Positions 7,461-59,690 of a stretch of DNA of 64,000 nt are shown here, piece by piece. Source of the stretch: Escherichia coli (GTDB lineage: Bacteria; Pseudomonadota; Gammaproteobacteria; Enterobacterales; Enterobacteriaceae). The translations under genes were made by a program, and so were the position numbers. A model generated the notes under the pieces. It was not told the origin of the DNA. It was given only the letters and a program-made list of their open reading frames with translations, and did not search any database. The stretch's first letter is position 1. Each line of letters opens with the position of its first letter. The DNA is taken from NCBI RefSeq assembly GCF_003334785.1, contig NZ_QOWV01000012.1; one strand, written 5' to 3'.

Positions 7461-7471
7461 CCAGGAACAAC

Positions 7472-8605: not shown

Positions 8606-8628
8606 TGATCGTTTCCAGCAACCTTTAC

Positions 8629-8871
8629 TTACTCACTTCGAACTGCATCCTCGTAGACTGTTCCACTACAATAATCGAAAAGGCGCGGATGTCCATTCAG
8701 GTATCCCGCTAATACGTATAGCAATAACAATGGCTTATGCGGCGCGCGCTGTTCACCCTTGTGCCAGATTTTTATATTGGCAATTGCCTGCTGTAGCGAT
8801 TTACTGGAAGCTATTGATATCCCTAGCAGTGAAATAATTGCGATCATGCTCGCAAATTTTCTGCTGTTCAA
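8629..8871 (-). CDS. hypothetical protein (80 aa) with RAPHKPLLLLYVLAGYLNGHPRLFDY motif; possibly N-terminal part of a frameshifted gene
   Basis: ORF in track, divergent from the HNH gene; followed 24 bp downstream by a second ORF in another frame. Confidence 0.3.
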   Translation of the reverse strand: MNSRKFASMIAIISLLGISIASSKSLQQAIANIKIWHKGEQRAPHKPLLLLYVLAGYLNGHPRLFDYCSGTVYEDAVRSE

Positions 8872-8950
8872 GCCTGCAAGTGAAGATATATTACCTTGAT
8901 CTCATTTGTTTTTTTGCTGCCTGTTCTGAGAACGTATAAGGACATTCTCC

Positions 8951-41809: not shown

Positions 41810-41912
41810 GCAGCCTGATGTGCTACGCTTATCAGGTCTACATAACCCATTAAATATATTGAACTTTAAAAATTTTGTAGACCTGGTAAGGCGTTCACAT
41901 AGCATCCGGCAT
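41810..41912. repeat. REP/BIME cluster between rpnD and yjiR
   Basis: gcctgatgtgctacgcttatcaggtctac and gtagacctggtaaggcgttcacatagcatccggca palindromic units. Confidence 0.55.
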
Positions 41913-42027
41913 GAACAAAGCGCACTTTGCCTAAGCCATGCTGTAACGTGGCGATGACCCTGCAAAGATAAAACGAGTTACAGGCGATTCGTGAGAGTAA
42001 ATCAGGGGCCTCGGCACTAATTCGAAT

Positions 42028-43440
42028 TTATTCCATTGCCCGATACACGGCATCGCCAATTTGCTTTAGTGCTTCGCGATAGGTTTCGCTGAGCGGCAAA
42101 GCGCAGTTGATGCGCAGACAATTACGGTATTTGCCGGAAGCCGAGAAAATCGAGCCTGCTGCCACCTGGATTTTCATGCGGTACAGCTGCCGCGCGACGC
42201 AGACCATATCGACCTGTTCAGGCAATTCGATCCACAGTAAAAATCCGCCTTTCGGGCGCGTAATACAGATTTCGCAGGGAAAATATTCCCGTATCCAGCA
42301 GGTATAAAGCGCCAGATTGCGCTGATAAGTCTGCCGCATCCGCCGGATATGGCGATGATAGTGACCTTCCAGCACAAACGTTGCCGCCGCCATTTGCGTG
42401 GACGGCACATTAAAGCTGCTGATGGCGTATTTCATATGCATCAGTTTATCGTGATAACGCCCCGGTGCGACCCAACCCACGCGCAGGCCTGGTGCAATGC
42501 TTTTACTGAACGAGCTGCACAACAGCACTCGCCCGTCGATATCCCAGGAATGAATGGTCCGCGGGCGCGGATACTCCGTTGCCAGTTCGCCGTAGACATC
42601 ATCTTCAAAAATCACAATATCATGACGCTGAGCGAGAGAGAGAACGGCCCGTTTGCGCGCGTCCGGCATAATAAATCCCAGCGGATTATTACAGTTTGGC
42701 ACCAGAATGATGCCTTTAATCGGCCACTGTTCCAGCGCCAGTTCCAGCGCTTCAACGCTGATGCCAGTTTCTGGATCGGTTGGGATTTCAATCACTTTCA
42801 CGCCCATACCGCGCAGCATCTGCATCGAACCGTAATAACAGGGGGATTCGACCGCGACAATATCGCCCGGTTTACACACCGCCATTAACGCCAGCGACAT
42901 CGAGTTATGGCAGCCGCTGGTGATAATGATGTCATCGGCGGTGACCACCGAGCCGCTGTCGAGCATCAGGCGGGCAACCTGCTCACGCAATACCCGCTGA
43001 CCGGCTAACAAGTCATAACCGAGAACGGTTTGCAGATTATGCTGCACCACCCGGCTTAGCTCCCGCCACAGCGGTTTCAGGCTGGGCGTTTCGACATCCG
43101 GCGTGCTTTTGCTTAACGGAACAATGGAACTGTCGCTATGCGCTTCCAGCATATCCAGCACCTGATCCCACTGGGTAATTTCCACCGGACGCTGCACCGG
43201 ACGCGTCATTGGTGGCACTGGCGGCTGGGCTTTACGTTGTGCGACAAAATAACCCGAACGCGGCTGTGGGGTGATGAGCTTCATCGTCTCCAGCGTCTGA
43301 TACGCCTGCTGCACGGTGCTGATGCTGACGCCGTGCTTCTGGCTTAAGCTGCGCACCGACGGCAATTTCTCCCCGTGACGATACAGCCCTTGCTCAATCC
43401 GCTCGGCAAGTAGAGTCGCCAGATGTTGATAACGCGTCAT
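42028..43440 (-). CDS. yjiR: MocR/GntR-family regulator with aminotransferase-like domain YjiR
   Basis: 470 aa; N-terminal GntR helix-turn-helix (LPSVRSLSQKHGVSISTVQQAYQTLE) plus PLP-fold domain. Confidence 0.85.
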   Translation of the reverse strand: MTRYQHLATLLAERIEQGLYRHGEKLPSVRSLSQKHGVSISTVQQAYQTLETMKLITPQPRSGYFVAQRKAQPPVPPMTRPVQRPVEITQWDQVLDMLEAHSDSSIVPLSKSTPDVETPSLKPLWRELSRVVQHNLQTVLGYDLLAGQRVLREQVARLMLDSGSVVTADDIIITSGCHNSMSLALMAVCKPGDIVAVESPCYYGSMQMLRGMGVKVIEIPTDPETGISVEALELALEQWPIKGIILVPNCNNPLGFIMPDARKRAVLSLAQRHDIVIFEDDVYGELATEYPRPRTIHSWDIDGRVLLCSSFSKSIAPGLRVGWVAPGRYHDKLMHMKYAISSFNVPSTQMAAATFVLEGHYHRHIRRMRQTYQRNLALYTCWIREYFPCEICITRPKGGFLLWIELPEQVDMVCVARQLYRMKIQVAAGSIFSASGKYRNCLRINCALPLSETYREALKQIGDAVYRAME

Positions 43441-43616
43441 GCTGTATTCCTTATTTGGACCATACAGAGAGAAAAACCGGTACAGATGAGGCTAAAAAAC
43501 CGGATGCAGATGCTGTTTTAACCTGTCTGTATGTTAAATAAAACTAATATTTGCATCTGTATTGTGAACTGCCAGAAGACGGATGATGAAGCCTCTGAAA
43601 GATGAGGAGGCAGCAG

Positions 43617-43781
43617 ATGGAATTTCACGAAAACAAAGCCAAAACGCCGTTTATCGGCCTAGTGCAACTCTGGCAGGAGGTGAGGCGTTGGCGGCGGCAA
43701 ATGCAGACCCGACGAGTGTTACAGCAGATGAGTGATGAACGGTTGAGGGATATCGGGTTACGCAGGGAGGATGTGGAGTGA
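43617..43781 (+). CDS. yjiS: DUF1127 small protein YjiS (54 aa)
   Basis: MEFHENKAKTPFIGLVQLWQEVRRWRRQMQTRRVLQQMSDERLRDIGLRREDVE; GAGGAGG Shine-Dalgarno; below the 60-aa track cutoff, found by manual translation. Confidence 0.8.
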   Translation: MEFHENKAKTPFIGLVQLWQEVRRWRRQMQTRRVLQQMSDERLRDIGLRREDVE

Positions 43782-44277
43782 GGGGGGATATAAATTTATA
43801 TAATAAAACGTTTTTATGTTTTTAAATTAAGTTATAAAAATTTTCCCGAGACTATTCATCAATAGGTATGGAGTGTACAGGAATATCTTCTTCACTAACC
43901 TCTTTAAACTCATGTCGATAATGGTCAAAAAACGCACAGTGATTACTTGTGTTTTTTGACTGACTTTACAACTCTCATTATTCGCTATTGTGAAGTTTCT
44001 CTAATTGTTTTATATCCTGGAAAGTTAAATGTTAGTTACTGCATACTTTTTTATTTTTTGAGATTTATTTTCATTTGAAATTATAAAGTCAGGTGATAAA
44101 TGAGTTGTGATTAATAGATAGTTGATATCATTTTTATCTAAAATTGATTTATGGTGCCGACCTGAAAAATTAGCTATTGCCGCCTGATTAATTATACGAT
44201 ATTTTTAAAGGTTTTCTTTCAAATTAGAAATATTCTGGGGTTTTGTTTTTGTATCTTTTATCTCTAAGGAGCTTGCT

Positions 44278-47043
44278 TTGGGTCAATCAGAATACATTTC
44301 ATGGGTAAAATGTACTTCCTGGCTAAGTAACTTTGTGAATCTTAGAGGGTTGAGACAACCGGATGGCCGTCCTCTTTATGAATATCATGCAACCAATGAT
44401 GAATATAACCAATTAACGCAGCTACTCCGTGCAGTCGGTCAATCACAATCTAATATATGTAATAAGGACTTTGCTGCCTGTTTTGTTCTTTTTTGCTCTG
44501 AGTGGTACCGCAGGGATTATGAACGGCAATGCGGATGGACGTGGGACCCTATATATAAAAAAATAGGGATTTCATTTACCGCCACAGAGCTTGGTACCAT
44601 CGTACCGAAAGGGATGGACGATTACTGGCTGCGCCCAATTCGATTTTATGAATCTGAACGACGCAATTTTCTCGGAACATTATTCAGTGAAGGTGGTTTA
44701 CCTTTCCGGTTACTCAAAGAATCAGACAGTCGCTTTCTGGCTGTTTTCTCCAGGATCCTTGGACAATATGAGCAAGCAAAGCAGTCAGGTTTTTCTGCCC
44801 TTTCGCTGGCAAGAGCCGTCATAGAAAAATTAGCGCTGCCAACTGTTTTTAGCGAAGATACTTCTGTAGAACTTATCAGTCATATGGCTGATAACCTCAA
44901 TTCCTTAGTACTTACTCACAACCTAATAAATCACAAAGAACCAGTACAACAGCTTGATAAGGTTCACCCTACCTGGCGAAGCGAGTTTCCAATACCGTTA
45001 GATGATGAAACAGGAACGCATTTTTTGAATGGACTGCTATGCGCAGCCTCTGTAGAGGCTAAGCCTCGACTACAAAAAAATAAGAGTACGCGTTGCCAAT
45101 TCTATTGGTCAGAAAAGCATCCAGATGAGCTTAGGGCGATAGTATCTCTCCCTGACGAAGTTTCCTTTCCTGTAACAAGCGAGCCGTCAACTACGCGCTT
45201 TGAACTTGCCATTTGTGAAGATGGTGAGGAAGTCTCTGGCCTTGGGCCAGCTTATGCTTCCCTGGAAAACAGACAGGCAACAGTTCGATTACGTAAAAGC
45301 GAAGTGAGATTTGTCAGGCAAAATCCATCGGCAGGTTTGTCGTTAGTGGCTCGTGCTGGAGGGATGATTGTTGGGAGCATTAAACTTGATGACAGTGAAA
45401 TTGCCATTGGTGAGGTGCCGTTAACCTTCATCGTTGATGCAGATCAATGGCTGTTACAGGGACAGGCCTCCTGTAGTGTGCAAAGCAGCGATGTTCTGAT
45501 TGTGCTCCCTCGGGACAATAGTACTGTTGCTGGTTTTGATGGCCAATCGAGTGCAGTAAACGTATTAGGACTTGTCGCTATGACTCTGGCGGTTGCTCTG
45601 CGTCAGGCGCTAGCGGGCGTTCTGGGTATCTCCGGCGCAGAACTCGGCTATTCTGTACGCCCGGTCAGACTGGAGGATGGGCAATCGGTATTAGCCGTTC
45701 AGCTTTATGATGTGATCAGCGGTGGTGCAGGTTTTGCCTCCAGCGCACCGGTACACATTGAAGCTATTTTGCAGGGAATGGTGAAACAGTTAGGTTGCCG
45801 CCATTGTGATACTGCATGTAGTGAATGCCTGCTTGATTCCCAGACTCGCCACGATCACGATTTGCTGGATCGCAAAGCGGCGCTGGCCTGGCTTGGCGAT
45901 GACTTCACGTATTACATCGGTTTACCGGATGAAGAGACATTCTCGCTGCCGGATGCCCGCTACTGCCCTGGCGCTATTGGCGATACGATTCGCCGGGCGA
46001 TTAACGAAGGCGCTGAAAAGCTCACCCTGTGGATGACCGGCGCGCCCAATGAGTGGGATTTATACGCCCGTCAGTTCCGCGCGGCGGTTCAGAGCTATCG
46101 GCTAAAAGACAACGTCGAGGTCGATCTTGTTATACCTGCGGGAGTGGATGACCCGGATCTGTTGTATGAACTATCGCAATTTACTGCGCTGGGTGTGCGG
46201 CTGTGCCATGTTGAACAGGATCTGCAATTGCCGATCGTTGCCCAGGTTACCTTTGCCGATCGCGTGATGACGCTGGCTTCTCGCAGCCAGCAGGCAACGA
46301 TTCCGGGGCCGGAGTGGCACCTGAATGACGAACTGGTGGTGCGTAGTCTCGGTTATAAAACGGTAGAACTGAACGAGTTTATTCTGCCGGCTAAAGCCGC
46401 CAACGCTGTCGAGCGGGTCAAAGACATTCAGATCCACAAACAGTTGAATGGACCACTTTCGCAGTTTGGACAACGCTTCTGGGACGTGCTGTTTAACGAC
46501 CATGAAGAAGCACAGTCACTGATGAATAACACGCGAATTACCGGCGTTCACTATACCGATCGCTATCTGCAAAACCCGGTTGCGCTGGCGTTGTTGGGAT
46601 CAATTCTGAGACCGCTAAAAACAAAGCTGACCGATGGCGCTGAAGTGGCGCTGGATACGCTGTTTAAAGATAAAGATCGCCCCGGTAACCGGCCTTTCCA
46701 TGACTGGATGAGCATAGCGGATTTTCAGGATTTCGCTGATCAGTGGTTTGCTGCTGCGCTGGGCAGGCCGATAGAACTAACGGTGTTCGACTCGCCGCGC
46801 GATATCCCTCACCATCGTAAACTGACGGTGACTTTTGAGGATGGTCAGGTTTTGAAGATCCGCTTCGATCAGGGGATGGGCTACTGGCGTATCAACTTTG
46901 CATCGCAATGGCATTACTTTGACTTCCGCGATGACGTTTCTTTCCAGTTAGTCAAAATGGCTCAGGCCTGCAATGAAGGAAATGTGGCCAACAGCGAAGA
47001 GAGCTGGGCAACGGATGTGCTGGTGGAGGTGAGCGCCTCCTGA
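44278..47043 (+). CDS. orphan 921-aa protein of the immigration-control region; contains GG-x-G plus C-x2-C-x3-C-x2-C motif (DUF1998/MZB-like zinc ribbon); function unknown, candidate defence protein
   Basis: Long uninterrupted ORF; TTG start 6 nt after AAGGAG; motif [13 protein letters not shown]...[34 protein letters not shown] at nt ~45715-45830; occupies the slot where K-12 carries yjiT/yjiV and mcrBC. Confidence 0.8.
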
Positions 47044-47050
47044 TGATGTG

Positions 47051-47082
47051 CCGCTCCCGATGTGGTGTCGGGAGCGTTTTTC
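47051..47082. terminator. intrinsic terminator hairpin between the convergent 921-aa ORF and symE
   Basis: gctcccga-tgtggtg-tcgggagc stem-loop followed by TTTTT on the plus strand. Confidence 0.55.
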
Positions 47083-47085
47083 CAT

Positions 47086-47427
47086 TCAGGCAACTTTCTG
47101 TTTACCGGCAATCACCCCAATAAATTCCTGCACCTGCTTTTGTTTACGCGCCGACAGCTTGCACACCCTGCGCAGCGACTGCATCAGTTCGCTCTCTTCG
47201 GCGGCGGGTGGTTGAGCGGTGAGGACGATGCAGCCTTCCATCACTTTGACATCTACCGCCGTGCCGGTGGCAAAACCGGCGGCTTCCAGCCACTGACCTT
47301 TCAGGGTGATGGCGGGAATATGCGCGTGATCCGGGTAGCGGCTCGCATAACCGACGGTGACATGACGGTTATTTGCCGGAGAGACTTCTGCTTCGAACGG
47401 TTGTGCAATAGAATACGTGTCAGTCAT
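47086..47427 (-). CDS. symE: SOS-induced toxin-like endoribonuclease SymE
   Basis: [74 protein letters not shown]...; 113 aa from the internal Met. Confidence 0.85.
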
Positions 47428-47497
47428 AACTGCTATTCTCCGATAATAGTGATTGTGATGAGCGGTGCGGGTGTGTTGGCGCACATCCGCACCGCGC
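47420..47497 (+). ncRNA. symR: cis-antisense sRNA SymR (position inferred, boundaries approximate)
   Basis: In K-12 SymR is encoded opposite the symE start/5'UTR; here an inverted repeat gcggtgcgg...ccgcaccgc at 47462-47496 lies in the corresponding position. Confidence 0.4.
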
Positions 47498-47503
47498 TAA
47501 ATA

Positions 47504-47521
47504 CCTGGATATATCATCAGT
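47504..47521. promoter_or_regulatory. LexA box of the symE promoter
   Basis: Reverse complement reads CTGATGATATATCCAG (CTG-N10-CAG with AT-rich centre) upstream of symE. Confidence 0.45.
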
Positions 47522-47654
47522 AAATACAGGGAAAGTCCAGCTAAAAATAGAATAAAATGGTCAGTTCCTGGAATGATTTAAATATATTTATGTGAGTTAT
47601 GATTGGCGTGAAATAATAAAAGGCGCACCGGAAAGGTGCGCCAGAAAATAATGA

Positions 47655-48968
47655 TCAGGATTTTTTACGCGAGGCTTTTTTACCTCCGCTGGCTGCGCGT
47701 TCAGCTTTGATTTTTTCCAGCAACGCGGCGGCGCTGTTTTCTCCGCTGATTAATTCCGGGTTTTCGGCCCGCCACTGGGCGGTGAGTTCACCACGGAACG
47801 CTTTTGCCAGGATGGATTGCGTCAGGTTGTTAACGCGGGCTAAGGCGTTGTTGACCTGTTTTTCTATGGTGTCTGCGTAGGCGAAGAGCTGCTCGACGCG
47901 GCGAACGATTTCGTGTTGTTCGGGGAGTGGAGGAACAGTTATTGGGTATGCAATTAATTTCTGTGCATTAATATTTGATTGACTGACCCCATCAGATTTT
48001 ACTGAGTAGCAATATTGCCTCCCCAAAATGCTATTTAAATGGTAGTTAAGATAGTCAGGGTTTAAATCAGGTAAACATTGAACCCTAATCAAATAACCTG
48101 CATAAATAGCTGGTTGCTCTGATTTATATATGGCTGTTTTCCCGACAAGTTCAGGACTATTTGTACGATTGAATAATACATCATTGTACTCAAGTTTATA
48201 CTTTTCAATTTCTATGGTATCTGAAGTATAGACTAGATCCGTCCAGTCCAATTTTCCGCCCTGAAGATTGCCCATTCTTAATACAGGAATGAGTCCTTCT
48301 TTATTAGACTTAGATGACGTTCCATAACTTGGTTTTTTTATAAATTCCCCAAGTTTGCCTTCTATCCACCCAGACAGGCTCGAATTATCTCTCCAGTCTT
48401 CAGTTAGTTTTCCACTTACCGCGGCACCCAGCACCGCCTGACGAAAACGTTTCAGGATTTGTGGGATTTGCTCAAGACGTGCTTTGGTGCTCTCTACCTG
48501 CGCCAGCAGCGTATCGAGTTTTTCAGCGATGATTTTTTGTTCTGAAATTGGAGGAAGTTGTATTTCCCAAGCCTCCATTCCAGCTTTGGTAATATGTGGC
48601 ATTGCCACGCCGTGAGCCGATGCTTTAAGTGCCTCTGTAATATTCAATAATGCATAATAAGCAAATTGCTTATTAAGTGCAGGGGATGTTTCAATCTTCC
48701 AAATATGGTAGTGATAAATTAGTTTATGATCCCACTTCGACCAATATGGACCAAATGTTGCTGACCAAGCATATAGGAGATCATTTTTATAGCAATATTT
48801 ATCTTCCTGTAGCTCTAAGTTGGAATAAAACCATTTATTCCCTCCATTCAAATTTTGAATTCTGAGAATAGGAACACCTTCTGTGAGCATTTCTTCTTTC
48901 TTATATGCTCTGCCATTGATGAGGGTCAAAACATCACCCAACTGGCATATTTGCCAATTTTTACTCAT
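47655..48968 (-). CDS. hsdS: type I restriction-modification specificity subunit HsdS (437 aa, type IA framework, target-recognition domains unlike EcoKI)
   Basis: Conserved central and C-terminal repeats (PPISEQKIIAEKLDTLLAQVE... and PPLPEQHEIVRRVEQLFAYAD...) flank two AT-rich variable domains; ATGA overlap with hsdM. Confidence 0.9.
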   Translation of the reverse strand: MSKNWQICQLGDVLTLINGRAYKKEEMLTEGVPILRIQNLNGGNKWFYSNLELQEDKYCYKNDLLYAWSATFGPYWSKWDHKLIYHYHIWKIETSPALNKQFAYYALLNITEALKASAHGVAMPHITKAGMEAWEIQLPPISEQKIIAEKLDTLLAQVESTKARLEQIPQILKRFRQAVLGAAVSGKLTEDWRDNSSLSGWIEGKLGEFIKKPSYGTSSKSNKEGLIPVLRMGNLQGGKLDWTDLVYTSDTIEIEKYKLEYNDVLFNRTNSPELVGKTAIYKSEQPAIYAGYLIRVQCLPDLNPDYLNYHLNSILGRQYCYSVKSDGVSQSNINAQKLIAYPITVPPLPEQHEIVRRVEQLFAYADTIEKQVNNALARVNNLTQSILAKAFRGELTAQWRAENPELISGENSAAALLEKIKAERAASGGKKASRKKS

Positions 48969-50554
48969 TCCTTCACCCCACCAAACGCTTCTTCCAGCAA
49001 CTGACGCTGTGCATCCGCCTCATCGCTCGCCCCCAGTTCACGCATCAGCGCATCCAGTTCACCCAGCGCCTGTACCAGTTCGCCCATCGCTTCTGCCGCT
49101 AATACATCCGGCTCCGGCAGGTTGTCGGCGTCAATGCTGTCTTTATCTTTCAGCCAGGAGATATCCAGCGAATCGGATTTCGCGGAGCGGATCCACTCGC
49201 GGCTGAACTTGCGCCAGCGGCTGGTAGCCAGATGCTGATCGGTATTTTTGTTCTCTTCGCTGTCGGCAACTTCCGTCTCTTCGGCGTTAAAACTCCATTC
49301 CCCTTCAGTACGCGGGCTTAAGCCGTGGGGATCTTCGCCATACACGCGCTCAAACGGCTGCAAATGCTCGTCGGTAAACGGCGTGCGTTTACCAAAGCTC
49401 GGCATATTGGTCCGCAGGTCGTACACCCACACGTCGTCGGTGCAGTTCTTATCCTGATGCGGGTTCGCCACTGTGCCTTTGGTAAAGAACAGCACGTTGG
49501 TCTTCACGCCCTGCGCGTAAAAAATACCGGTCGGCAGACGCAGAATGGTGTGCAGATGACACTTATCCATCAGGTCACGACGGATGTCGGTGCCTTTGCC
49601 GCCTTCAAACAACACGTTATCTGGCACCACCACCGCCGCACGACCGCCGGGATGCAGCGTTTCGATAATATGCTGCATAAAGCACAGCTGTTTGTTGCTG
49701 GTCGGGTGAACAAAGGTGCGGGTAATGTTGGTGCCTGCGGCGCTGCCAAACGGCGGGTTAGTGGCGACAATATGCGCCTTCGGCAGGTTTTCACCGTCGC
49801 TGCCCAGGGTGTTGCCCAGACGGATTGCGCCGCCGTGGTCGAGGTTGCCTTCAATATCGTGCAGCAGGCAGTTCATCAGCGCCAGACGACGGGTGCCGGG
49901 CACCAGTTCGAGGCCGATAAACGCGCGGTGGATCTGGAAATCCTGTGTGTCGCCATCAAGGTCGTCCAGATCGTTAGTCTGCGACTTAACGTAGCGGTCG
50001 GCTTCAATCAAAAAGCCCGCCGTACCCGCTGCCGGGTCCTGCACCACTTCACGCGGCTGCGGTTTCAGCAGATGAATAATGGTTTTAATCAGCGGACGCG
50101 GGGTGAAGTACTGGCCCGCGCCAGACTTGGTTTCGTTCGCGTTCTTCTGCAACAGCCCTTCGTACATATCGCCGAAGTCATCGCGCGACTTACCGTGCGC
50201 ACCGTTGTACCAGTCCAGTGAATCCATATTGCTGACCAGTTCGGTCAACTGTTTTGGCTGGGTAATGGTGGTGTTGACGTTCTGGAACACCGCCTGCACC
50301 AGCTTTTGATTGTCGGCGCCCAGATGTACCAGCAGGTTACGGTAGAACTGCAACTGCTCCTGACCGATACGGGATTTCAGGTCGTCCCAGCGGTAGCCTT
50401 CCGGCAGGTATTCCGCTTCCTGTCTGGTTTCTTTACACATTTTCAAAAACAGCAGCGAGGCGAGTTCATTGACGTAGTTTTGATAGGAAACGCCGCCATC
50501 GCGCAGGTTGTCGCACAGCTTCCACAGCTTGGCGACCAGATCGTTATTGTTCAT
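48965..50554 (-). CDS. hsdM: type I restriction-modification N6-adenine methyltransferase HsdM
   Basis: 529 aa; NPPF catalytic motif (HIVATNPPFGSAAG); sequence closely matches EcoKI-family HsdM as recalled. Confidence 0.9.
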   Translation of the reverse strand: MNNNDLVAKLWKLCDNLRDGGVSYQNYVNELASLLFLKMCKETRQEAEYLPEGYRWDDLKSRIGQEQLQFYRNLLVHLGADNQKLVQAVFQNVNTTITQPKQLTELVSNMDSLDWYNGAHGKSRDDFGDMYEGLLQKNANETKSGAGQYFTPRPLIKTIIHLLKPQPREVVQDPAAGTAGFLIEADRYVKSQTNDLDDLDGDTQDFQIHRAFIGLELVPGTRRLALMNCLLHDIEGNLDHGGAIRLGNTLGSDGENLPKAHIVATNPPFGSAAGTNITRTFVHPTSNKQLCFMQHIIETLHPGGRAAVVVPDNVLFEGGKGTDIRRDLMDKCHLHTILRLPTGIFYAQGVKTNVLFFTKGTVANPHQDKNCTDDVWVYDLRTNMPSFGKRTPFTDEHLQPFERVYGEDPHGLSPRTEGEWSFNAEETEVADSEENKNTDQHLATSRWRKFSREWIRSAKSDSLDISWLKDKDSIDADNLPEPDVLAAEAMGELVQALGELDALMRELGASDEADAQRQLLEEAFGGVKE

Positions 50555-50639
50555 TGTGAGTTCCGTAAATTAAGCAGCGGCCCAAATTTATTGGGCCGCA
50601 TAAGAATAAATTGCCGAGGGTAATATACACAAAATCATT

Positions 50640-50755
50640 CAGGTTGCATCAAGGCGGCAAGTGAGTGAATCCCCGGGAGCGTACAGAAGTACGTGACCGG
50701 GGTGAACGAGCGCAGCCAACGCAGAGGCAGCCTGAAGGATGAAGTGTATACGTGT
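50640..50755. repeat. ERIC (IRU) intergenic repeat between hsdR and hsdM
   Basis: aagtgagtgaatccccgggagcgtacagaagtacgtgaccggggtgaacgagcgcagccaacgcagag matches the ERIC consensus. Confidence 0.7.
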
Positions 50756-53700
50756 CAGGCCAGCTCGTCCCAGATATAATCGCTGAATTTATCGAGCAGG
50801 TTGTCGAGATTATCGTCAAAGGTTCTTTGCAGCATCGCCTTCCCGCCGCGACGGTGGAAGTTGCCGGTTTTGAAGACATCGTCGTCGAGCACCACTTTCT
50901 CTTTCAGCGCCTGTGCTAAACGATCGAGCCAGCTTAATTGCTCGCTGCTCCAGTCGTTTTCGCCCTTGATGCGCGTCAGCGCGTGATCGACACGTTCCTC
51001 AAACGGTTTCAGCGCATCGCCCACCGCAGCGCGGCGAATATGTCCAATCAACCGGGCGGCAATATCTTCATTACGCGTCTCTTTCCACGCTTTGCGCAGG
51101 GAAGATTCCTCAAAGTGCTGGCGGTCAAACCACTCCTGGAGTTCGACCAGCCCTTTACGGGTGAGATCGCGCGGGCGATTGATCACCGCCTGCAATGCCG
51201 GTTGCGCGTTCGGGGAACGTTGCACCAGCGAGTCAAAGGCTTCGAGGAAATCCTGCGGCGTGTCGTAATCACCGTACAGCGATTTTACGCTCAACACTTC
51301 ATCGTCGATATCGAGGAAGATCGGCGCATCATTCAGGTTATTGATATCAGTTTTCAGCTTTTCCAGGCGGGCGATAAAGCCAGGCAGCTTGTTAAAGACT
51401 TCGGCGCTCCAGTGCGGCCCTTTTTCCCGCAGGCGCGAGGCGAAGCCGTTAAAGCCCACCCCCGCCGCGTCCTGGCATAGCTCATCCAGACGACGCACCT
51501 GTTTATCTATCGTTTCGCTGCGGTCACGGTTAAACGTGGCCAGGCCGATGATGCGCTGGAGCTTCGCCACCAGTTGTTCATGGCTGTGCTCGGCAAAACT
51601 GCGGCCATCCGCTTCGGTGATTTTATAGGTTTCTGAATCGGTAATTTCGTTGACCAGCGTTTGCAGCTCCACCTTAGGACGCACCACCACCGGACGCATG
51701 GTGTCGACGCTCTCCAGCGTGCTGTATATATCGACGCAGTCGAAAATCTTAAAGCTGGTTTTATTCACGTCCGGGCACAAGCGCGTGGCGCGGCCTTTCA
51801 TCTGCTCGTACAGAATACGGCTGCGTACTTTACGCAGGAACACGATGTTACAGATCGACGGAATATCGACGCCGGTCGTCAGCAGGTCGACGGTTACCAC
51901 AATATTGGGCAGCCGCTCTTTATTGAAGCGGGTGATCATGGTCTGCACTTTGCGCGCGTCTTTATCGGCATCACCGGTGATCTTGATTATCGCGTCGTGC
52001 TCCAGTTGCGGATACTTTTTCTTGAACGCGGTACGCAACTCTTCCACCACCATATCGGCATGGGCATTGGTGACGCAGAAGACCAGCGTTTTTTGCGACC
52101 CGGTCGGGTCAAGGTAGTTGGTGAGTTCGTTACAGACGGCGCGGTTAAACGCCGGGATCACCAGGCCACGGTTAAAGTCGGCGACCTCAAAATCCTGATC
52201 GTCTTCCAGGGTGTCGTTGATTACTTCCCCCTGCGGGCTGATGCGCTCTACCTGTTCGCCTTTGGAGAGATAAACACCCTCCTGTGCGTTGCGGGTGGTG
52301 ATCTGAATTGGTGGATCCTGGTCGATCAGAAAACCGTCGATAACCGCGGTACGGTAGGTATAACGGTAAACCGGCTCGCCGAAAATCTGCACCGTATGCA
52401 ACGCCGGGGTGGCGGTGAGGGCGATTTTTATCGCATCGAAGTGATCGAGAATGCGACGGTAGGCAGAGACATAATCCAGCTGGCTGCGGAACTGTAGTTC
52501 GCCTTCGGTCTGCTCTTTATCGAGAATATAGCCGCGATGCGCTTCATCGACGACGATACAGTCGTAACGGGCCACCGGCATCGGTTCATCTGATTGCAGG
52601 GTGCGTTTCACCAGCGACTGTACGGTGGCAACGTGAATTTTGGTGCTGTCTTCCGGGAATTTATCCGTCAGCCCTTTAATGTCGAAAATGCTGTTGAAGG
52701 TGTCGCCGTTAATACGCGTATCTTCAAACGCCCCCAGCGCCTGCTCGCCAAGAGAACGGCGATCCACAAGGAAGAGAATGCGTTTAAAACGCTGGGACTG
52801 GATCAGGCGGAACATCATGGCAATTGCGGTGCGGGTTTTACCGGTACCGGTCGCCATCGCCAGCAGGATCTCTTGTTGACCCTTGACGATTGCCTTTTCC
52901 ACCGCGCGGACGGCATCTTCCTGATAATAACGCAGGCCCAGCTCGCTCATGCCGGGATTATCGGCAAACCACTGATTCTGTTTTTGCGGTTCGCTGCCGA
53001 GCATTTCCAGCAGCTCTTCCGGGCGATGCCACTCGGGTAAGGCTTTCGACATATTGCGGGTATCACGCACGTCGCGATACCAGATGCCACTTTTAGTCTT
53101 CATTGCTGCGCGGTATTCGCGCCCGTTGGTGGAGTAGCAGAAGGGGATTTTAAACCGTTGTTGGCCGCTGGAGTCCTGCCAGCTAGTTTCATACTCCGGC
53201 ACCGCTTCATGCACTTCATCCGGTGAGTAGTGCTCAAGCAAGGTTTCCCGCAGGAAGCCATTATCGAAGCATTTACTGTAGCGATACGACTCATTGAGCT
53301 TGCCGGGAACGTCGATATTTTTACGTTTCGCCTCTACCACCGCGATGGGTTTGAGGCCGACAAACAGCACATAATCCGCAAAGCCCTGTTTACCCGTTTC
53401 ATCTTTCCCGGTCGGCCATTCGGCAATGGCTTTATTGACGCCGGGTTCCGGGCGCGCGCCTTTGGAGAAGCGCAGGGTTTTGCTATCGGCCTGCCAGCCT
53501 GCTTTACGCAGTTGCGCATCAATCAGGAAGCGGCTCTCTTCTTCGCTAAGGTTGAGTGTGCGCTTGATGGCCTGATCGGTAATTTCTTTGTGGTAAGCCT
53601 TACGTTCCTGTTCAGTCTGTTTGGCCAGTTCCGCGTTCTTCTCGGCGAGCTGTGCTTCCAGCGCCGCAAGGCGAGCCTGGGTTTGCGCTTCTGTTTCCTG

Positions 53701-54267
53701 CTGTTTGCCTTCCAGAATAGCGATATAGCCGTTCAGGGCAACCAGCTTCTGCTGTTGCGCTTCGACTTCTGCCTGAGTCTGCGCTTTTTCTCGCACCTGC
53801 TGTTCAAGCTGTTGTTTTAGCGTCAGCACTTCCTGGTGATAGAGGTTCTCGCCACGTTCTGGTAACACAAACACCGGCACCGGGAAGTCATAATCTTTAG
53901 TGACCAGACGGTAGTACCAGACAGCCAGGCGGAACCCGAGTCGCAGGCACATCTGGGCATCGTCGAGATCGTTGTGATATTCGTGCACCGCCTGGTTACC
54001 AATGCGGCGTAATTTGTGAAATACAGAGAGAATGTTGTCATCAACGAAGGCGATTTTGCCGAGTTCGCGCAGGAGATCGTGTTGATTCTCACAAGGGGGG
54101 ATGTTGAGTAACAGACCAAGATGTTTCGCTGTGGCTTCGCCAAACATACGCATTTTAATTAGCGTCGTATTGGGATCATCCGGGTAGTTATTTTCCGCCG
54201 CACAGGCGATGGCATAAGTGAAGTCGTTGACGCCCTTCAGGAATTCGAAGTTGGATTTATTCATCAT
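50755..54267 (-). CDS. hsdR: type I restriction endonuclease/translocase HsdR
   Basis: 1170 aa; Walker A (AMATGTGKTRTA) and DEAH-like (VVDEAHRG) helicase motifs; operon context. Confidence 0.9.
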   Translation of the reverse strand: MMNKSNFEFLKGVNDFTYAIACAAENNYPDDPNTTLIKMRMFGEATAKHLGLLLNIPPCENQHDLLRELGKIAFVDDNILSVFHKLRRIGNQAVHEYHNDLDDAQMCLRLGFRLAVWYYRLVTKDYDFPVPVFVLPERGENLYHQEVLTLKQQLEQQVREKAQTQAEVEAQQQKLVALNGYIAILEGKQQETEAQTQARLAALEAQLAEKNAELAKQTEQERKAYHKEITDQAIKRTLNLSEEESRFLIDAQLRKAGWQADSKTLRFSKGARPEPGVNKAIAEWPTGKDETGKQGFADYVLFVGLKPIAVVEAKRKNIDVPGKLNESYRYSKCFDNGFLRETLLEHYSPDEVHEAVPEYETSWQDSSGQQRFKIPFCYSTNGREYRAAMKTKSGIWYRDVRDTRNMSKALPEWHRPEELLEMLGSEPQKQNQWFADNPGMSELGLRYYQEDAVRAVEKAIVKGQQEILLAMATGTGKTRTAIAMMFRLIQSQRFKRILFLVDRRSLGEQALGAFEDTRINGDTFNSIFDIKGLTDKFPEDSTKIHVATVQSLVKRTLQSDEPMPVARYDCIVVDEAHRGYILDKEQTEGELQFRSQLDYVSAYRRILDHFDAIKIALTATPALHTVQIFGEPVYRYTYRTAVIDGFLIDQDPPIQITTRNAQEGVYLSKGEQVERISPQGEVINDTLEDDQDFEVADFNRGLVIPAFNRAVCNELTNYLDPTGSQKTLVFCVTNAHADMVVEELRTAFKKKYPQLEHDAIIKITGDADKDARKVQTMITRFNKERLPNIVVTVDLLTTGVDIPSICNIVFLRKVRSRILYEQMKGRATRLCPDVNKTSFKIFDCVDIYSTLESVDTMRPVVVRPKVELQTLVNEITDSETYKITEADGRSFAEHSHEQLVAKLQRIIGLATFNRDRSETIDKQVRRLDELCQDAAGVGFNGFASRLREKGPHWSAEVFNKLPGFIARLEKLKTDINNLNDAPIFLDIDDEVLSVKSLYGDYDTPQDFLEAFDSLVQRSPNAQPALQAVINRPRDLTRKGLVELQEWFDRQHFEESSLRKAWKETRNEDIAARLIGHIRRAAVGDALKPFEERVDHALTRIKGENDWSSEQLSWLDRLAQALKEKVVLDDDVFKTGNFHRRGGKAMLQRTFDDNLDNLLDKFSDYIWDELA

Positions 54268-54454
54268 TGTTATTAATCCATTGCTGTGTGGGCCTGTCCA
54301 AATATTTAAGGCCCATAACGTCTTATCTTAGCTTTCTGTACCTTTCCGGACAATGACCGGAGTCACAGCAACTGACTCATTTCTAACGTGTTCGTCTATT
54401 TTGGTAGTGTTATAGTAGCCGAAAAACATCTACCTGATTCTGCAAGGATGTACT

Positions 54455-55369
54455 ATGACGGTTCCTACCTATGACAAATTTATTGAACCTGTTCTGCGTT
54501 ATCTGGCGACAAAACCGGAAGGTGCAGCCGCGCGTGATGTTCATGAGGCTGCCGCGGATGCATTAGGACTGGATGACAGCCAGCGAGCGAAAGTCATTAC
54601 CAGCGGACAACTTGTTTATAAAAATCGTGCAGGCTGGGCACATGACCGTTTAAAACGTGCCGGGTTGTCGCAAAGTTTGTCGCGTGGCAAATGGTGCCTG
54701 ACTCCTGCGGGTTTTGACTGGGTTGCGTCTCATCCCCAGCCAATGACGGAGCAGGAGACGAACCATCTGGCCTTCGATTTTGTGAATGTCAAACTTAAGT
54801 CACGGCCGGATGCCGTCGATTTAGATCCGAAAGCCGACTCTCCCGATCATGAAGAACTAGCAAAGAGCAGCCCGGACGATCGGTTAGATCAGGCGCTAAA
54901 AGAGCTTCGTGATGCGGTGGCTGATGAGGTTCTGGAAAACTTATTGCAGGTTTCTCCTTCGCGCTTTGAAGTCATTGTTCTGGATGTTTTGCATCGCCTG
55001 GGGTATGGCGGCCACCGTGATGATTTGCAGCGTGTTGGCGGTACTGGAGATGGTGGCATCGATGGTGTGATATCGCTTGATAAACTTGGCCTGGAGAAAG
55101 TTTATGTTCAGGCAAAACGTTGGCAGAACACTGTAGGCAGGCCAGAATTACAGGCATTTTACGGCGCACTGGCTGGGCAAAAGGCGAAACGTGGGGTGTT
55201 TATTACCACTTCTGGATTTACGTCTCAGGCGCGTGACTTTGCTCAATCCGTCGAGGGTATGGTGTTGGTTGATGGGGAACGCCTGGTGCACTTAATGATC
55301 GAAAACGAAGTAGGGGTTTCTTCACGTTTGTTGAAGGTGCCGAAACTGGATATGGACTATTTTGAGTGA
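54455..55369 (+). CDS. mrr: type IV modification-dependent restriction endonuclease Mrr
   Basis: 304 aa; MTVPTYDKFIEPVLRYLATKPEGAAARDVHEAAADALGL... winged-helix N-terminus plus Mrr catalytic core (VYVQAKRW). Confidence 0.9.
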   Translation: MTVPTYDKFIEPVLRYLATKPEGAAARDVHEAAADALGLDDSQRAKVITSGQLVYKNRAGWAHDRLKRAGLSQSLSRGKWCLTPAGFDWVASHPQPMTEQETNHLAFDFVNVKLKSRPDAVDLDPKADSPDHEELAKSSPDDRLDQALKELRDAVADEVLENLLQVSPSRFEVIVLDVLHRLGYGGHRDDLQRVGGTGDGGIDGVISLDKLGLEKVYVQAKRWQNTVGRPELQAFYGALAGQKAKRGVFITTSGFTSQARDFAQSVEGMVLVDGERLVHLMIENEVGVSSRLLKVPKLDMDYFE

Positions 55370-55374
55370 AATAT

Positions 55375-55408
55375 CAGGCCGGATGCGGCTGCGCCTTATC
55401 CGGCCCAT
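55375..55408. repeat. REP element between mrr and yjiA
   Basis: caggccggatgcggctgcgccttatccggccc. Confidence 0.55.
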
Positions 55409-55414
55409 AACCCC

Positions 55415-56371
55415 TTACTTCCTCAACCCCGCAAACGCCGCCCGAATCTCATCCTCCGGCAACTGAATCCCGATAAACACCATCGTGCTATGCGGTTTTT
55501 CATCGCCCCACGGTCTGTCCCAGTCGGCGCTGTAGAGGCGCTGGACGCCCTGGAACAGCAGGCGGTTAGCTTCGCCGTCAATCCACAGCATCCCTTTGTA
55601 ACGCAGCAGTTTATCCGCCGATTCCAGCAGCAGGTTTTCCATCACGCGGGAAACTTCGCTGATATCTACCGGGTAATCCAGTTCCACCACAATCGACGAA
55701 ATATCGTTTTGTTTATCCGCGATAAAGTGGAAACGCGGTTTGGTGCTGACGACGTTCTCTTCCAGCATAAAACCGTTGGTGTTGAACAGCAGGCCCAGGT
55801 CGATGTCGCCGTGGGTAACGGTGTAGACCGGTGCACGGGCGTTGATGCGCGCCAGGCGTTCGCGCAGTTTTTCTGCTTCGCCTGCGACGTCGGTTTTAGT
55901 CAGCAGAATACGGTCGGCGTAGCCAACCTGTGACTGGGCGATGGTGAACTGGTTCATCTGCTCATCGGCATGTACCGCATCCACCAGCGCAATCACGCCG
56001 TCCAGCAGGTAACGCTGGCATAAAATCTCATGGGAGAAAAAGGTCTGAATAATCGGGCCGGGATCGGCCATGCCGGTGCATTCAATGACCAGACGGTCGA
56101 ACTGAATATTGCCCTTGTCGAGATTATCCAGCAGGTCGAGTAGCGCGTCCTCCAGCTCGTTGGAGCGCGAACAGCAGATGCAGCCGTTGGTCAGCGTTTT
56201 GATCTGCGTGGCGCGGTCACCAATCAGTTGATCATCAACGGAGACTTCGCCGAATTCGTTTTCAATCACGGCAATCTTGTAGCCGTGTTGTTCGTTAAGA
56301 ATATGGCGCAGCAGGGTGGTTTTGCCCGCGCCTAAAAAACCGGTGAGTAGGGTAACTGCAATCGGGTTCAT
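55415..56371 (-). CDS. yjiA: COG0523/CobW-family metal-associated GTPase YjiA
   Basis: MNPIAVTLLTGFLGAGKTTLLRHILNEQHGYKIAVIENEFGEVSVD... P-loop and CxCC motif (GCICCS); 318 aa from the internal Met. Confidence 0.85.
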   Translation of the reverse strand: MNPIAVTLLTGFLGAGKTTLLRHILNEQHGYKIAVIENEFGEVSVDDQLIGDRATQIKTLTNGCICCSRSNELEDALLDLLDNLDKGNIQFDRLVIECTGMADPGPIIQTFFSHEILCQRYLLDGVIALVDAVHADEQMNQFTIAQSQVGYADRILLTKTDVAGEAEKLRERLARINARAPVYTVTHGDIDLGLLFNTNGFMLEENVVSTKPRFHFIADKQNDISSIVVELDYPVDISEVSRVMENLLLESADKLLRYKGMLWIDGEANRLLFQGVQRLYSADWDRPWGDEKPHSTMVFIGIQLPEDEIRAAFAGLRK

Positions 56372-56381
56372 GCTCTCTCCA

Positions 56382-56585
56382 TTAACAACAGCGCATACCG
56401 CCTTTACCATCGCCGCCGTAGCGCGCGTTCTGGCGTTCGCGGAAGAATTCTTCATAGCTCATGTACGGCTTGTCGGGATGGTTGGTCTTCATATGCTCGA
56501 CGTAGTTGTCGTAGTCTGGAATGCCAATCAACATCTTCGCCGCCTGGCCGAGATATTTTTTTGCCTGTCCTAAGTTACCAAACAT
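56382..56585 (-). CDS. yjiX: DUF466 small protein YjiX
   Basis: 67-aa ORF immediately downstream of btsT and upstream of yjiA, as in K-12. Confidence 0.8.
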
Positions 56586-56595
56586 AGTTCACTCT

Positions 56596-56628
56596 GATAA
56601 GAACAAAGCCCCGCCGAAGCGGGGCTAA
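56596..56628 (-). terminator. intrinsic terminator downstream of btsT
   Basis: agccccgcc-gaa-gcggggct hairpin followed by a T-rich run on the minus strand. Confidence 0.5.
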
Positions 56629-56634
56629 ACACGG

Positions 56635-58785
56635 TTAGTGGTGCGAAGAGATCTTCACGCCGCCTTCCGGGATTGGAACGTACGGTGTTTCTTTGTCAGT
56701 ACGTTTGTCGCTGTTACGCACCTTCAGCCAGGTTTTGAAACCGTAGAAGATGATGCTGTACACCACAATCAGGAACAGAATACTCAGGCCCGCGTTGGTG
56801 TAGTTGTTCACAACAATGTGGTTCATGTTGGCAATCTGCTGCGCCGTCAGGTCAGTACCGTTAGCAATCTTCTCTTTGTACTGGCTTGCCATGTAGAAGA
56901 AGCCTTCCATCTGTGGGTTGGTGCTGAACAGTTTCAGACCCAGTGCCCAGGTGGTGCAGATAAGCAGCCATACAGCCGGAACAACGGTAACCCAGATGTA
57001 TTGGGTGCGCTTCATCTTAATCAGCACAACGGTGCCCAGTACCAGCGCCACGGCTGCCAGCATCTGGTTGGAGATACCGAACAGCGGCCACAGGCTCTTA
57101 ACGCCGCCCAGCGGATCGACCACGCCCTGATACAGCAGGTAGCCCCACAGACCCACACAGCCCGCAGTACCGATGATACCGGCAACCAGAGAGTCGGTTT
57201 TTTTCAGGAACGGGATGAAGTTACCCAGCAGGTCTTGCAGCATAAAGCGGCCAGAACGGGTACCCGCATCCAGCGCGGTCAGGATGAACAGGGCTTCGAA
57301 CAGAATACCGAAGTGATACCAGAAGCCCATGTCAGCCATCGGCAGCACTTTGTGGAACACATGAGCGATACCTACCGCCAGCGTCGGCGCACCACCTGCA
57401 CGGTTCAGGACAGAAGGCTCACCAATGTCTTTCGCGGTTTGCAGGATCTGCTCTGGCGAAATCACGAAGCCCCAGGAGCTGACGGTTGCCGCCGCGTGTG
57501 CGGTAACGTCTTTCAGCTGCGCCATGATGATCGGCGCGTTCTCGCCACCCATTTCATGCAGGTTAGGCATGGTGATGCCAAGGCCAGCAGGCGGGGTATT
57601 CATCGCGAAGTAAAGACCCGGTTCGATGATGGACGCAGCAACCAGCGCCATAATCGCCACGAAGGACTCCATCAGCATTGCGCCGTAGCCAATGAAACGC
57701 GCGTCGGTTTCATTAGCCAGCAGTTTCGGCGTCGTACCGGAAGAGATCAGCGCGTGGAAGCCAGATACCGCACCACAGGCGATGGTGATGAACAGGAACG
57801 GGAACAGAGCGCCTTTCCACAGCGGGCCAGTACCGTCAATGTACTGGGTCATCGCAGGCATTTTCAGTTCCGGGTTCAGCACCACGATACCCAGCGCCAG
57901 GCCGACGATAACGCCGATTTTCAGGAAGGTTGCCAGATAGTCGCGCGGTGCGAGGATCAGCCACACCGGCAGCAGTGCGGAAACAAACGCATAGCCAATC
58001 AGCGCGAAGGTAATGGTGGTGTCTTTAAAGGTCAGTGCCGGACCCCAGTACGGATCGTGAGCAATCACGCCACCGAAGTAGATAGAGGCAACCAGCAGCA
58101 CGATACCAATGACAGAGACTTCACCCACACGCCCCGGACGGATAAAGCGCATGTAGATACCCATAAACAGCGCAATCGGTACGGTTGAGCAAACGGTGAA
58201 AACACCCCACGGGCTTTCGGCCAGGGCTTTAACCACAATCAGCGCCAGGACGGCAAGGATGATGATCATGATTAAGAAACAGCCAAACAGCGCGATAGTC
58301 CCCGGTACTGGTCCCATCTCTTCTTTGATCATCTCACCGAGAGATGCGCCGTTACGGCGAGAGGAGATAAACAGCACCATAAAGTCCTGTACCGCACCGG
58401 CCAGTACTACCCCCGCCAGCAGCCACAGCGTGCCAGGTAGGTAGCCCATCTGCGCGGCGAGAACCGGACCAACCAGCGGACCAGCACCGGCGATAGCGGC
58501 GAAGTGGTGACCAAACAACACGTAACGGTTGGTCGGAACGTAGTTCAGACCGTCGTTGTTAATAACCGCAGGCGTCGCGCGCGTGGGGTCGAGTTTCATC
58601 ACCTTCTGGGCGATGTACAAACTGTAGTAGCGATACGCCACCAGATACACCGACACAGAGGCGACCACGATCCACAGGGCGCTGACGTGCTCCCCCCGAC
58701 GTAATGCAACTACCGCGAGGCAGAATGCACCGATGATTCCGAGAATCACCCAGGGTATGTGCTTGAATAGTTTTTTCGTATCCAT
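56635..58785 (-). CDS. btsT: CstA-family pyruvate/H+ symporter BtsT (YjiY)
   Basis: MDTKKLFKHIPWVILGIIGAFCLAVVALRRGEHVSALWIVVASVSVYLVAYRYYSLYIAQ...; 716 aa from the internal Met. Confidence 0.9.
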   Translation of the reverse strand: MDTKKLFKHIPWVILGIIGAFCLAVVALRRGEHVSALWIVVASVSVYLVAYRYYSLYIAQKVMKLDPTRATPAVINNDGLNYVPTNRYVLFGHHFAAIAGAGPLVGPVLAAQMGYLPGTLWLLAGVVLAGAVQDFMVLFISSRRNGASLGEMIKEEMGPVPGTIALFGCFLIMIIILAVLALIVVKALAESPWGVFTVCSTVPIALFMGIYMRFIRPGRVGEVSVIGIVLLVASIYFGGVIAHDPYWGPALTFKDTTITFALIGYAFVSALLPVWLILAPRDYLATFLKIGVIVGLALGIVVLNPELKMPAMTQYIDGTGPLWKGALFPFLFITIACGAVSGFHALISSGTTPKLLANETDARFIGYGAMLMESFVAIMALVAASIIEPGLYFAMNTPPAGLGITMPNLHEMGGENAPIIMAQLKDVTAHAAATVSSWGFVISPEQILQTAKDIGEPSVLNRAGGAPTLAVGIAHVFHKVLPMADMGFWYHFGILFEALFILTALDAGTRSGRFMLQDLLGNFIPFLKKTDSLVAGIIGTAGCVGLWGYLLYQGVVDPLGGVKSLWPLFGISNQMLAAVALVLGTVVLIKMKRTQYIWVTVVPAVWLLICTTWALGLKLFSTNPQMEGFFYMASQYKEKIANGTDLTAQQIANMNHIVVNNYTNAGLSILFLIVVYSIIFYGFKTWLKVRNSDKRTDKETPYVPIPEGGVKISSHH

Positions 58786-58804
58786 AGTAAAACCTGGCAT
58801 TTTA

Positions 58805-58915
58805 CTCGTCGTCTTTTGGCTTACAGGTGCGGCAGCTGCGTTCGTTCACCTCTGACACTTACTGTTGTAAGCTCCCGGGGATTCACTCACTTGCTGCCTT
58901 CCTGCAAACCAAAAT
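58805..58915. repeat. ERIC (IRU) repeat upstream of btsT, inverted relative to the copy at 50640-50755
   Basis: ...ctgttgtaagctcccggggattcactcacttgctgcc... is the reverse complement of the ERIC core seen between hsdR and hsdM. Confidence 0.6.
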
Positions 58916-59135
58916 CCATAGAGTAATTTGTTAATCATAGGCCGAAGCCGTTCTAGGTTTGCGTTGCGTTTGAGGAGGTAAATTGACCGCTATCCTGCAG
59001 TGATGTTGCCAGAGATACGCGCGCGTAAAGTAAGGTAAATAACTGAGTGGTTATTTTAGGGATGTAAGCGGTCAGGAATGGCGGTGAGCGGTTGGGCAAG
59101 AATTATTCATCGGGTGGATATGTGATTGAGATCAC

Positions 59136-59171
59136 AATAAAAATGCCCCTTCGACGAATGCGTGAAGGGGC
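59136..59171 (-). terminator. intrinsic terminator downstream of hpaC
   Basis: ccccttc...gaagggg hairpin followed by a T-run on the minus strand. Confidence 0.5.
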
Positions 59172-59177
59172 TGGAGC

Positions 59178-59690
59178 TTAAATCGCAGCTTCCATTTCCA
59201 GCATCACCGGATGGAAACGGCGTTTAAAGTAGATAAGTCCGTGACCTTCTGCACTGAGGATGATGTTTTTAATCTCCACCAGATACACCAGATGTGTGCC
59301 AATTGCCTGCACATCGCGGATCTCACCTTCAAGACTGGCCAGCGAACCTTTTAGCACCGGCTGCGCCAGCGGACCTTTTTGCCAGCATGAGAGGCTAAAA
59401 CGCTCTTCCATCGCCATGCCTGTCATGCCCGCGAAGTGGCGTGCCATCAGTTCCTGCTCATGGTTGAGGACGTTGACGCACAACTTGCCGTTGCCCTGAA
59501 AAACCGGGTTCATCGCACTGTTGGCGTTAATGCACACCATCAGCGACGGTGGTGTATCCGTGACCGAGCAGACAGCCGTTGCCGTAATCCCGCATTGTCC
59601 GGTGTCGCCCTCGGTGGTGATAATATTTACCGCTGCCGACAGGCTGGCCATCGCGTCACGAAAGCGCAGGCGTTGTTCATCTAATTGCAT
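59178..59690 (-). CDS. hpaC: 4-hydroxyphenylacetate 3-monooxygenase reductase component HpaC
   Basis: 170-aa flavin reductase MQLDEQRLRFRDAMASLSAAVNIITTEGDTGQCGITATAVCSVTDTPPSLMVCINANSAMNPVF... Confidence 0.9.
   Translation of the reverse strand: MQLDEQRLRFRDAMASLSAAVNIITTEGDTGQCGITATAVCSVTDTPPSLMVCINANSAMNPVFQGNGKLCVNVLNHEQELMARHFAGMTGMAMEERFSLSCWQKGPLAQPVLKGSLASLEGEIRDVQAIGTHLVYLVEIKNIILSAEGHGLIYFKRRFHPVMLEMEAAI

Follow-up and report, generated by a model that had tools for sequence, protein, structure and literature searches.

The symE-symR locus of an Escherichia coli strain with a variant immigration control region

The symE-symR pair of Escherichia coli K-12 (symE, also yjiW, b4347; symR, also ryjC, b4625) is a type I toxin-antitoxin-like pair (Kawano, Aravind & Storz 2007) and resembles the SOS-controlled type I pairs tisB/istR-1 and dinQ/agrB of E. 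coli in that a LexA-repressed toxin gene is combined with an RNA antitoxin which blocks translation (PMC4147584). The toxins of tisB/istR-1 and dinQ/agrB are small membrane peptides, whereas SymE is a soluble protein of 113 amino acids with an AbrB/MazE fold, and unlike the RNAs of those two systems SymR is a true cis-antisense RNA that lies over the ribosome-binding site. Toxicity of SymE for growth is known for the K-12 protein only (PMC1891008), and its biochemical role, either as an RNase-like toxin or as a DNA binder that condenses the nucleoid, is disputed. The former was proposed in the 2007 work (PMC1891008), whereas Thompson 2022, as summarised in PMC11894785, reports no RNase activity and describes non-specific DNA binding with nucleoid condensation; the current MG1655 record annotates SymE as nucleoid-associated. 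PMC12707154 also names the pair as one of the toxin-antitoxin systems found with the type I families of the immigration control region, a documented variable defence island.

The locus described here lies in a stretch of 64,000 nucleotides of E. coli DNA (contig NZ_QOWV01000012.1 of assembly GCF_003334785.1), referred to below as the window. It is with high confidence the orthologue of the K-12 symE-symR locus, possesses all of its regulatory parts and lies with hsdS on one side and a decayed yjiT/yjiV gene on the other. The DNA itself shows which symE and symR sequence parts are present, that they are intact and how they are arranged; the features are as follows.

44278-47043, plus strand: open reading frame of 921 amino acids, a yjiT'-'yjiV fusion lying outside the symER module (family model, alignments with K-12 and strain 120899).
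47052-47081, plus strand: GC-rich hairpin with a stem of 9-11 bp, followed by TTTTT (terminator scan, repeat search, folds of both strands).
47086-47427, minus strand: symE coding sequence, 113 amino acids and stop (K-12 identity, NCBIfam, Pfam, annotation in strains 120899 and RM10410).
47409-47414, plus strand: -10 hexamer TAGAAT of symR, assigned by K-12 identity, within symE codons 5-7.
47422-47498, plus strand: symR, a 77-nt cis-antisense RNA with two hairpins (Rfam RF01809, fold, K-12 identity).
47438-47441, minus strand: Shine-Dalgarno sequence GGAG of symE, 10 nt upstream of the ATG, read from the sequence and arranged as in K-12.
47462-47495, plus strand: inverted repeat that forms the 3' stem-loop of SymR, with a 15-bp stem in the window allele (repeat search, Rfam, fold).
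47503-47522, minus strand: predicted LexA operator (SOS box), TACTGATGATATATCCAGGT on the symE strand (matrix scan, alignment with K-12 and across 11 lineages).
47523-47548, minus strand: conserved stretch upstream of the LexA box (multi-lineage alignment, limits of match coverage).
47622-47642, minus strand: intrinsic terminator of hsdS, a hairpin followed by TTTT, conserved in K-12 (terminator scan, repeat search).

As in K-12, gene order and orientation beside hsdS are maintained, and so are the overlap of SymR with the start codon and the Shine-Dalgarno sequence, the -10 hexamer of symR and the position of the LexA box. The difference lies on the 3' side of symE, where K-12 has mcrB-mcrC and the window has a terminator and the 3' end of the yjiT/yjiV fusion. 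The locus as a whole is textbook E. coli, each of its parts being an already-known feature; what it documents is a strain that keeps an intact symE/symR pair, SOS-controlled if judged by orthology, in a variant immigration control region.

The original prediction of a symE gene of 113 codons is borne out at the protein level. The window protein is identical to K-12 SymE (b4347) at 107 of 113 residues (95%) in a protein alignment, scores 218.6 bits against the NCBIfam equivalog model NF010128 (cutoff 132) over positions 1-112 of 113, and matches Pfam PF08845 (SymE_toxin) with an E-value of 5.5e-21, residues 20-71 covering the model from end to end (1-54 of 54). The DNA of strain 120899 is 100% identical to the window over 47044-47660, and PGAP annotates symE there; strain RM10410 matches at 220 of 221 positions over 47380-47600 and thus differs by at least one base. 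In both strains the SymE protein annotated by PGAP is WP_000132864.1. Six amino-acid changes (H5Y, Y34H, S35A, R36H, Q87R and A101E) separate window SymE from that of K-12, and among ten sampled symE alleles H5Y, Y34H-S35A-R36H and Q87R are unique to the window allele. The cluster at codons 34-36 (47326-47334) results from five nucleotide changes in three adjacent codons and has the look of one multi-base event or of a short conversion tract. It reads His-Ala-His in the window and Tyr-Ser-Arg in K-12 and the eight other sampled alleles, and it falls within the AbrB/MazE-like domain (Pfam match residues 20-71). While symE is matched in 2873 of 5426 complete E. coli genomes, only 55 of these 2873 carry a sequence at least 99% identical to the window allele. 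A rare variant with a clustered change of three residues in the DNA-binding domain could be useful to those who study SymE.

The antisense RNA is equally well supported. SymR scores 89.5 bits against Rfam family RF01809 (gathering threshold 61, E-value 5.1e-16) over model positions 1-77 of 77, and it is the single match above threshold in a scan of the whole window. Far from aligning poorly with K-12 symR, the RNA is identical at 72 of 77 positions (93.5%), and the surrounding segment 47400-47560 aligns with K-12 at 152 of 161 positions (94.4%). SymR starts five bases inside the symE reading frame, so that its 5' end covers the first two symE codons, and its hairpin 1 covers the Shine-Dalgarno sequence. 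Both the ATG (47427-47425, minus strand) and GGAG (47441-47438, minus strand) are therefore included in the SymR-complementary stretch, with the putative symR promoter inside the symE reading frame. The inverted repeat that had been noticed at the 5' region of symE, where SymR was expected, has arms of 14 nt at 47462-47475 and 47482-47495 (93% matched). It corresponds to the 3' hairpin of SymR as defined by RF01809, and is located in the 5' untranslated region of symE rather than in its coding part.

The window and K-12 RNAs share the same predicted fold of two hairpins, with minimum free energies of -39.1 kcal/mol (z -5.1) and -37.8 kcal/mol (z -5.3), respectively. Three of the five base differences between them lie in the loop of hairpin 1. 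At position 39 (47460) the window RNA has G for U, which leaves A1 unpaired, whereas in K-12 an A1-U39 pair ends the outer stem of hairpin 1. At position 44 (47465) it forms a G-C pair in hairpin 2, the 3' hairpin, where K-12 has an A·C mismatch. The tip of this 3' hairpin shows a further variation in strains Nord8 and SSGNw2 (L009 and L010), which have CGCCAA at the equivalent of window 47476-47481 in place of TTGGCG. The two are exact reverse complements and the six bases comprise the loop and its closing pair, which indicates that the hairpin tip was inverted in the Nord8/SSGNw2 lineage.

The assignment of the symR promoter follows K-12. The TAGAAT hexamer is identical to its K-12 counterpart in the alignment, and two silent changes made in K-12, which convert CATTCT to CACTCC on the symE strand, abolished SymR (Kawano et al. 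2007, PMC1891008); these changes fall on positions 2 and 5 of the hexamer. A relaxed script detected no consensus -35 element of symR near TAGAAT, and scans for the sigma-70 consensus under standard and relaxed criteria placed no promoter for symE or symR in the window, with the same outcome for the K-12 sequence.

On its 3' side symE converges on the 921-amino-acid open reading frame, as had been predicted: the latter ends at 47043 on the plus strand, and symE occupies 47086-47427 on the minus strand. The label of orphan that had been given to this reading frame does not hold. Judged from its sequence, it arose by an in-frame deletion that joined the 5' 1.3 kb of yjiT (STY4851/ECs_5259 family) to the last 1.5 kb of a yjiV-type DEAD/DEAH-DUF1998 helicase gene. 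Residues 15-431 match positions 1-417 of the 1090 positions of YjiT_fam, window 41867-45572 matches yjiR-yjiS-yjiT of K-12, and from 45568 onwards the sequence matches the 3' end of the helicase gene of 120899 (2114 amino acids) at 99.97%. At the junction, the K-12 and 120899 alignments have 5 nt in common (45568-45572). This junction is found in 8 of 5426 complete E. coli genomes, and in RM10410 PGAP calls both halves of the fusion incomplete pseudogene pieces. Strain ETEC-2265 was considered as the undeleted ancestor and rejected, as a chromosomal rearrangement splits yjiT there. In both 120899 (L001, 1-5700) and ETEC-2265 (L012, 9900-13000) the yjiT region adjoins the msrA-tamA or paeA-ytfK neighbourhood, which in K-12 is about 130 kb distant. 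A copy of IS621 lies between msrA and the yjiT-family gene in 120899, and the ETEC-2265 junction carries no annotated IS element; the arrangement suggests that a large inversion, one end of which lies in the immigration control region, has recurred.

The 42-nt gap between the two converging genes contains a perfect 9-bp inverted repeat (47052-47060 and 47068-47076), and it had been proposed that the resulting hairpin is a terminator shared by both. The convergence and the stem are found as described, and the stem folds equally well on the two strands (-22.3 and -21.4 kcal/mol, z about -4.5 to -5). However, a T5 tract follows the stem on the plus strand only, which makes this a canonical intrinsic terminator for the 921-amino-acid reading frame alone. 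Behind the stem, the symE strand reads GCACAUCAUCAG and lacks a U-tract; there is no A-tract before the stem on the plus strand, and the terminator scan reports the plus strand only. The hairpin is homologous to the one that follows yjiV in K-12 (L002, approximately 6866-6890), which implies that it came with the neighbouring gene. Its identity with the K-12 hairpin behind symE was considered and ruled out, the latter having a different sequence.

That the element at 47052-47076 nevertheless ends the transcripts of both genes as a true bidirectional terminator is a possibility that must be considered, if a somewhat doubtful one. In its favour, the stem is located 9 nt past the symE stop codon, and a GC-rich hairpin occurs 8-15 nt past that stop in every other context sampled, the neighbours being mcrB, GmrSD, DUF1524 and yjiS. 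This suggests that symE needs a 3' stem, which may matter for the gene. Against it stand the missing U-tract and the homology of the hairpin to the post-yjiV element of K-12, and the reading as a terminator of the 921-amino-acid frame is preferred. As a separate observation, the mcrC-mcrB segment of K-12 is flanked by two hairpins with similar stems (L002, 6862-6890 and 9469-9491), namely GCTCCCGA...TCGGGAGC and GCTCCCGG...CCGGGAG, of which the window retains the first only. These bracketing hairpins might be marks of cassette breakpoints or coincidental terminators.

The other end of the symE module carries the predicted LexA operator. The original prediction pointed to a CTG-N10-CAG box upstream of symE, and such a core (CTGGATATATCATCAG) is present at 47505-47520, 78-93 nt upstream of the ATG and in a position orthologous to that of the K-12 site. 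The bare pattern is unspecific, occurring 23 times in the window where 13 matches are expected, and was dropped as evidence in favour of a 20-nt heterology-index matrix. This matrix was rebuilt from 26 known LexA sites of E. coli, with symE excluded, and is approximate: compared with Table 1 of PMC11228462, most published indices are reproduced to within about one unit, tisB being the exception. Among the approximately 64,000 positions of the 64-kb window, 47503-47522 is the best LexA-like 20-mer with an index of 9.46, the next best reaching 11.63. Both triplets are intact and the sequence resembles TACTG(TA)5CAGTA. The K-12 symE box scores 8.72 on the rebuilt matrix and has a published index of 7.9, while published values for accepted SOS boxes include 9.2 for ftsK, 9.4 for dinB and 13 for polB (PMC11228462); the window index of 9.46, approximate as the rebuilt matrix is, would fall among those of functional boxes, which extend to about 13. 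The K-12 box is itself already weak. Expression of K-12 symE is induced 1.5-fold by AZT and is 2.5-fold LexA-dependent (PMC11228462), and its LexA site and SOS induction go back to Fernandez De Henestrosa 2000, as cited in PMC1891008.

Column for column, the window box aligns with the K-12 (yjiW) box and differs by one substitution, CTGG for CTGT. A lineage-specific weakening of the operator by this change was considered and ruled out, as CTGG is the common allele: of the 11 E. coli lineages sampled, 10 have it (O157:H7, BL21 and APEC among them), and K-12 with its CTGT is the exception. For work on SymE and the SOS response it may be useful that the K-12 box is a minority allele and that most E. 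coli have CTGG. Immediately upstream, the conserved stretch 47523-47548 should contain the -35 region of symE, and homology to several other E. coli lineages stops at about 47548.

Two further readings call the function of the module into question. According to the first, the module is present but attenuated, combining a weaker operator with a SymE whose DNA binding or toxicity has been altered or lost through Y34H-S35A-R36H. The window operator has the higher heterology index on the same matrix (9.46 against 8.72 for K-12), HAH in place of YSR occurs in only this one of the ten sampled alleles and falls within the Pfam match (residues 20-71), and the allele is confined to 55 of the 2873 matching genomes at 99% identity or more. 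Yet the operator in its CTGG form is the common one in E. coli, the symE reading frame is intact and scores far above the NF010128 equivalog cutoff, the symR promoter hexamer, the Shine-Dalgarno sequence and the start codon are all as in K-12, and neither the change from R to H nor that from Y to H is obviously inactivating. Attenuation is judged very unlikely, and window SymE is assumed to be as active as the K-12 protein. The second reading, in which CTG-N10-CAG is a chance palindrome and symE escapes LexA control in this strain, can appeal to the 23 occurrences of the bare pattern and to several departures from TACTG(TA)5CAGTA with a high heterology index, but it is next to incredible for a 20-mer that ranks first among some 64,000 positions, is positionally orthologous to the K-12 box behind the SOS induction documented by way of PMC1891008, and is kept in 11 of 11 lineages, which diverge from one another some 30 nt further upstream.

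On the preferred reading of an intact orthologue, expression, LexA binding and SymE activity in the strain of the window can be inferred by analogy with K-12, and the locus would operate by the published symE/SymR mechanism (PMC1891008, PMC4147584). LexA bound to 47503-47522 would keep the symE promoter nearly silent, as expected from orthology with K-12. SymR would be transcribed from the promoter inside the first symE codons (-10 hexamer at 47409-47414) with its start at 47422, and would pair with the 5' untranslated region, the Shine-Dalgarno sequence and the start codon of the symE mRNA and thereby block translation; since SymR is encoded in cis, its complementarity to the symE mRNA is perfect. 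Following DNA damage, cleavage of LexA would raise the level of symE mRNA and allow some SymE to be made, which Lon would degrade. Abundant SymE, with its AbrB/MazE fold, would stop growth by way of RNA decay, as in the 2007 model, or by nucleoid condensation; on current evidence, non-specific DNA binding that condenses the nucleoid is the more likely of the two. The description of SymE as an SOS-induced, toxin-like protein repressed by SymR and LexA, from which the analysis departed, thus stands in its repression part (PMC1891008), whereas "toxin-like" is the 2007 view and has since been disputed, as summarised in PMC11894785.

The surroundings correspond to the E. coli immigration control region (ICR, defence hotspot 36), with yjiR-yjiS-yjiT on one side, hsdS-hsdM-hsdR-mrr-yjiA on the other, and a variable set of restriction genes between the yjiA side and the yjiN-yjiS side. 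Homology to K-12 extends over four blocks, 41867-45572 (yjiR-yjiS-yjiT), 46256-47082 (the end of yjiV and the hairpin), 47090-47921 (symE to the 3' end of hsdS) and 48963-58800 (hsdM onwards), and hsdM, hsdR, mrr and yjiA follow in K-12 order. The match to 120899 runs over 45568-59660, from symE to btsT, and includes hsdSMR, mrr and yjiA. This version of the region is without a type IV cassette (neither McrBC nor GmrSD) between yjiV and symE, and the mcrC-mcrB segment of K-12 (L002, approximately 6898-9503) has no counterpart in the 64-kb window. Unlike most versions, it also has the 921-amino-acid yjiT/yjiV fusion that is common to 8 of 5426 complete genomes. With mcrBC absent and the target-recognition domains of HsdS different, the earlier view that the module is retained while the restriction content differs from K-12 is upheld. 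Across the sampled E. coli, symE is found beside varied cassettes, and its retention next to changing neighbours is the norm of the species and not a peculiarity of this strain.

Homology between lineages breaks exactly at the symE stop (47086), with differences even in the final Ala codon and the stop itself, and breaks a second time at about 47548, some 28 nt upstream of the LexA box (loci L004-L011). The two breaks delimit a symER block of about 460 bp between two cassette slots that vary independently. On the promoter side of symE an hsd gene or a remnant of one is present in 11 of 11 lineages, whatever lies on the other side. One could imagine that symE-symR is more than a passenger and has a functional link to the type I restriction system next to it; SOS-induced SymE might, for example, coat or condense DNA and so limit self-restriction at unmodified sites exposed by damage or by loss of methylation. 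Such a coupling would explain why the symER block of about 460 bp (47086-47548) remains fixed beside hsd while cassettes are exchanged, and it is at present highly improbable.

The hsdS gene next to the module (47655-48968) belongs to the EcoKI (type IA) family and its product is 44% identical overall to K-12 HsdS. This HsdS is nearly identical to the K-12 protein in the central and C-terminal conserved regions, and both of its target-recognition domains are unrelated, which predicts that its recognition sequence differs from that of the K-12 enzyme. The hsdS terminator at 47622-47642 is, judging by its sequence and position, an insulator of symE from hsd read-through.
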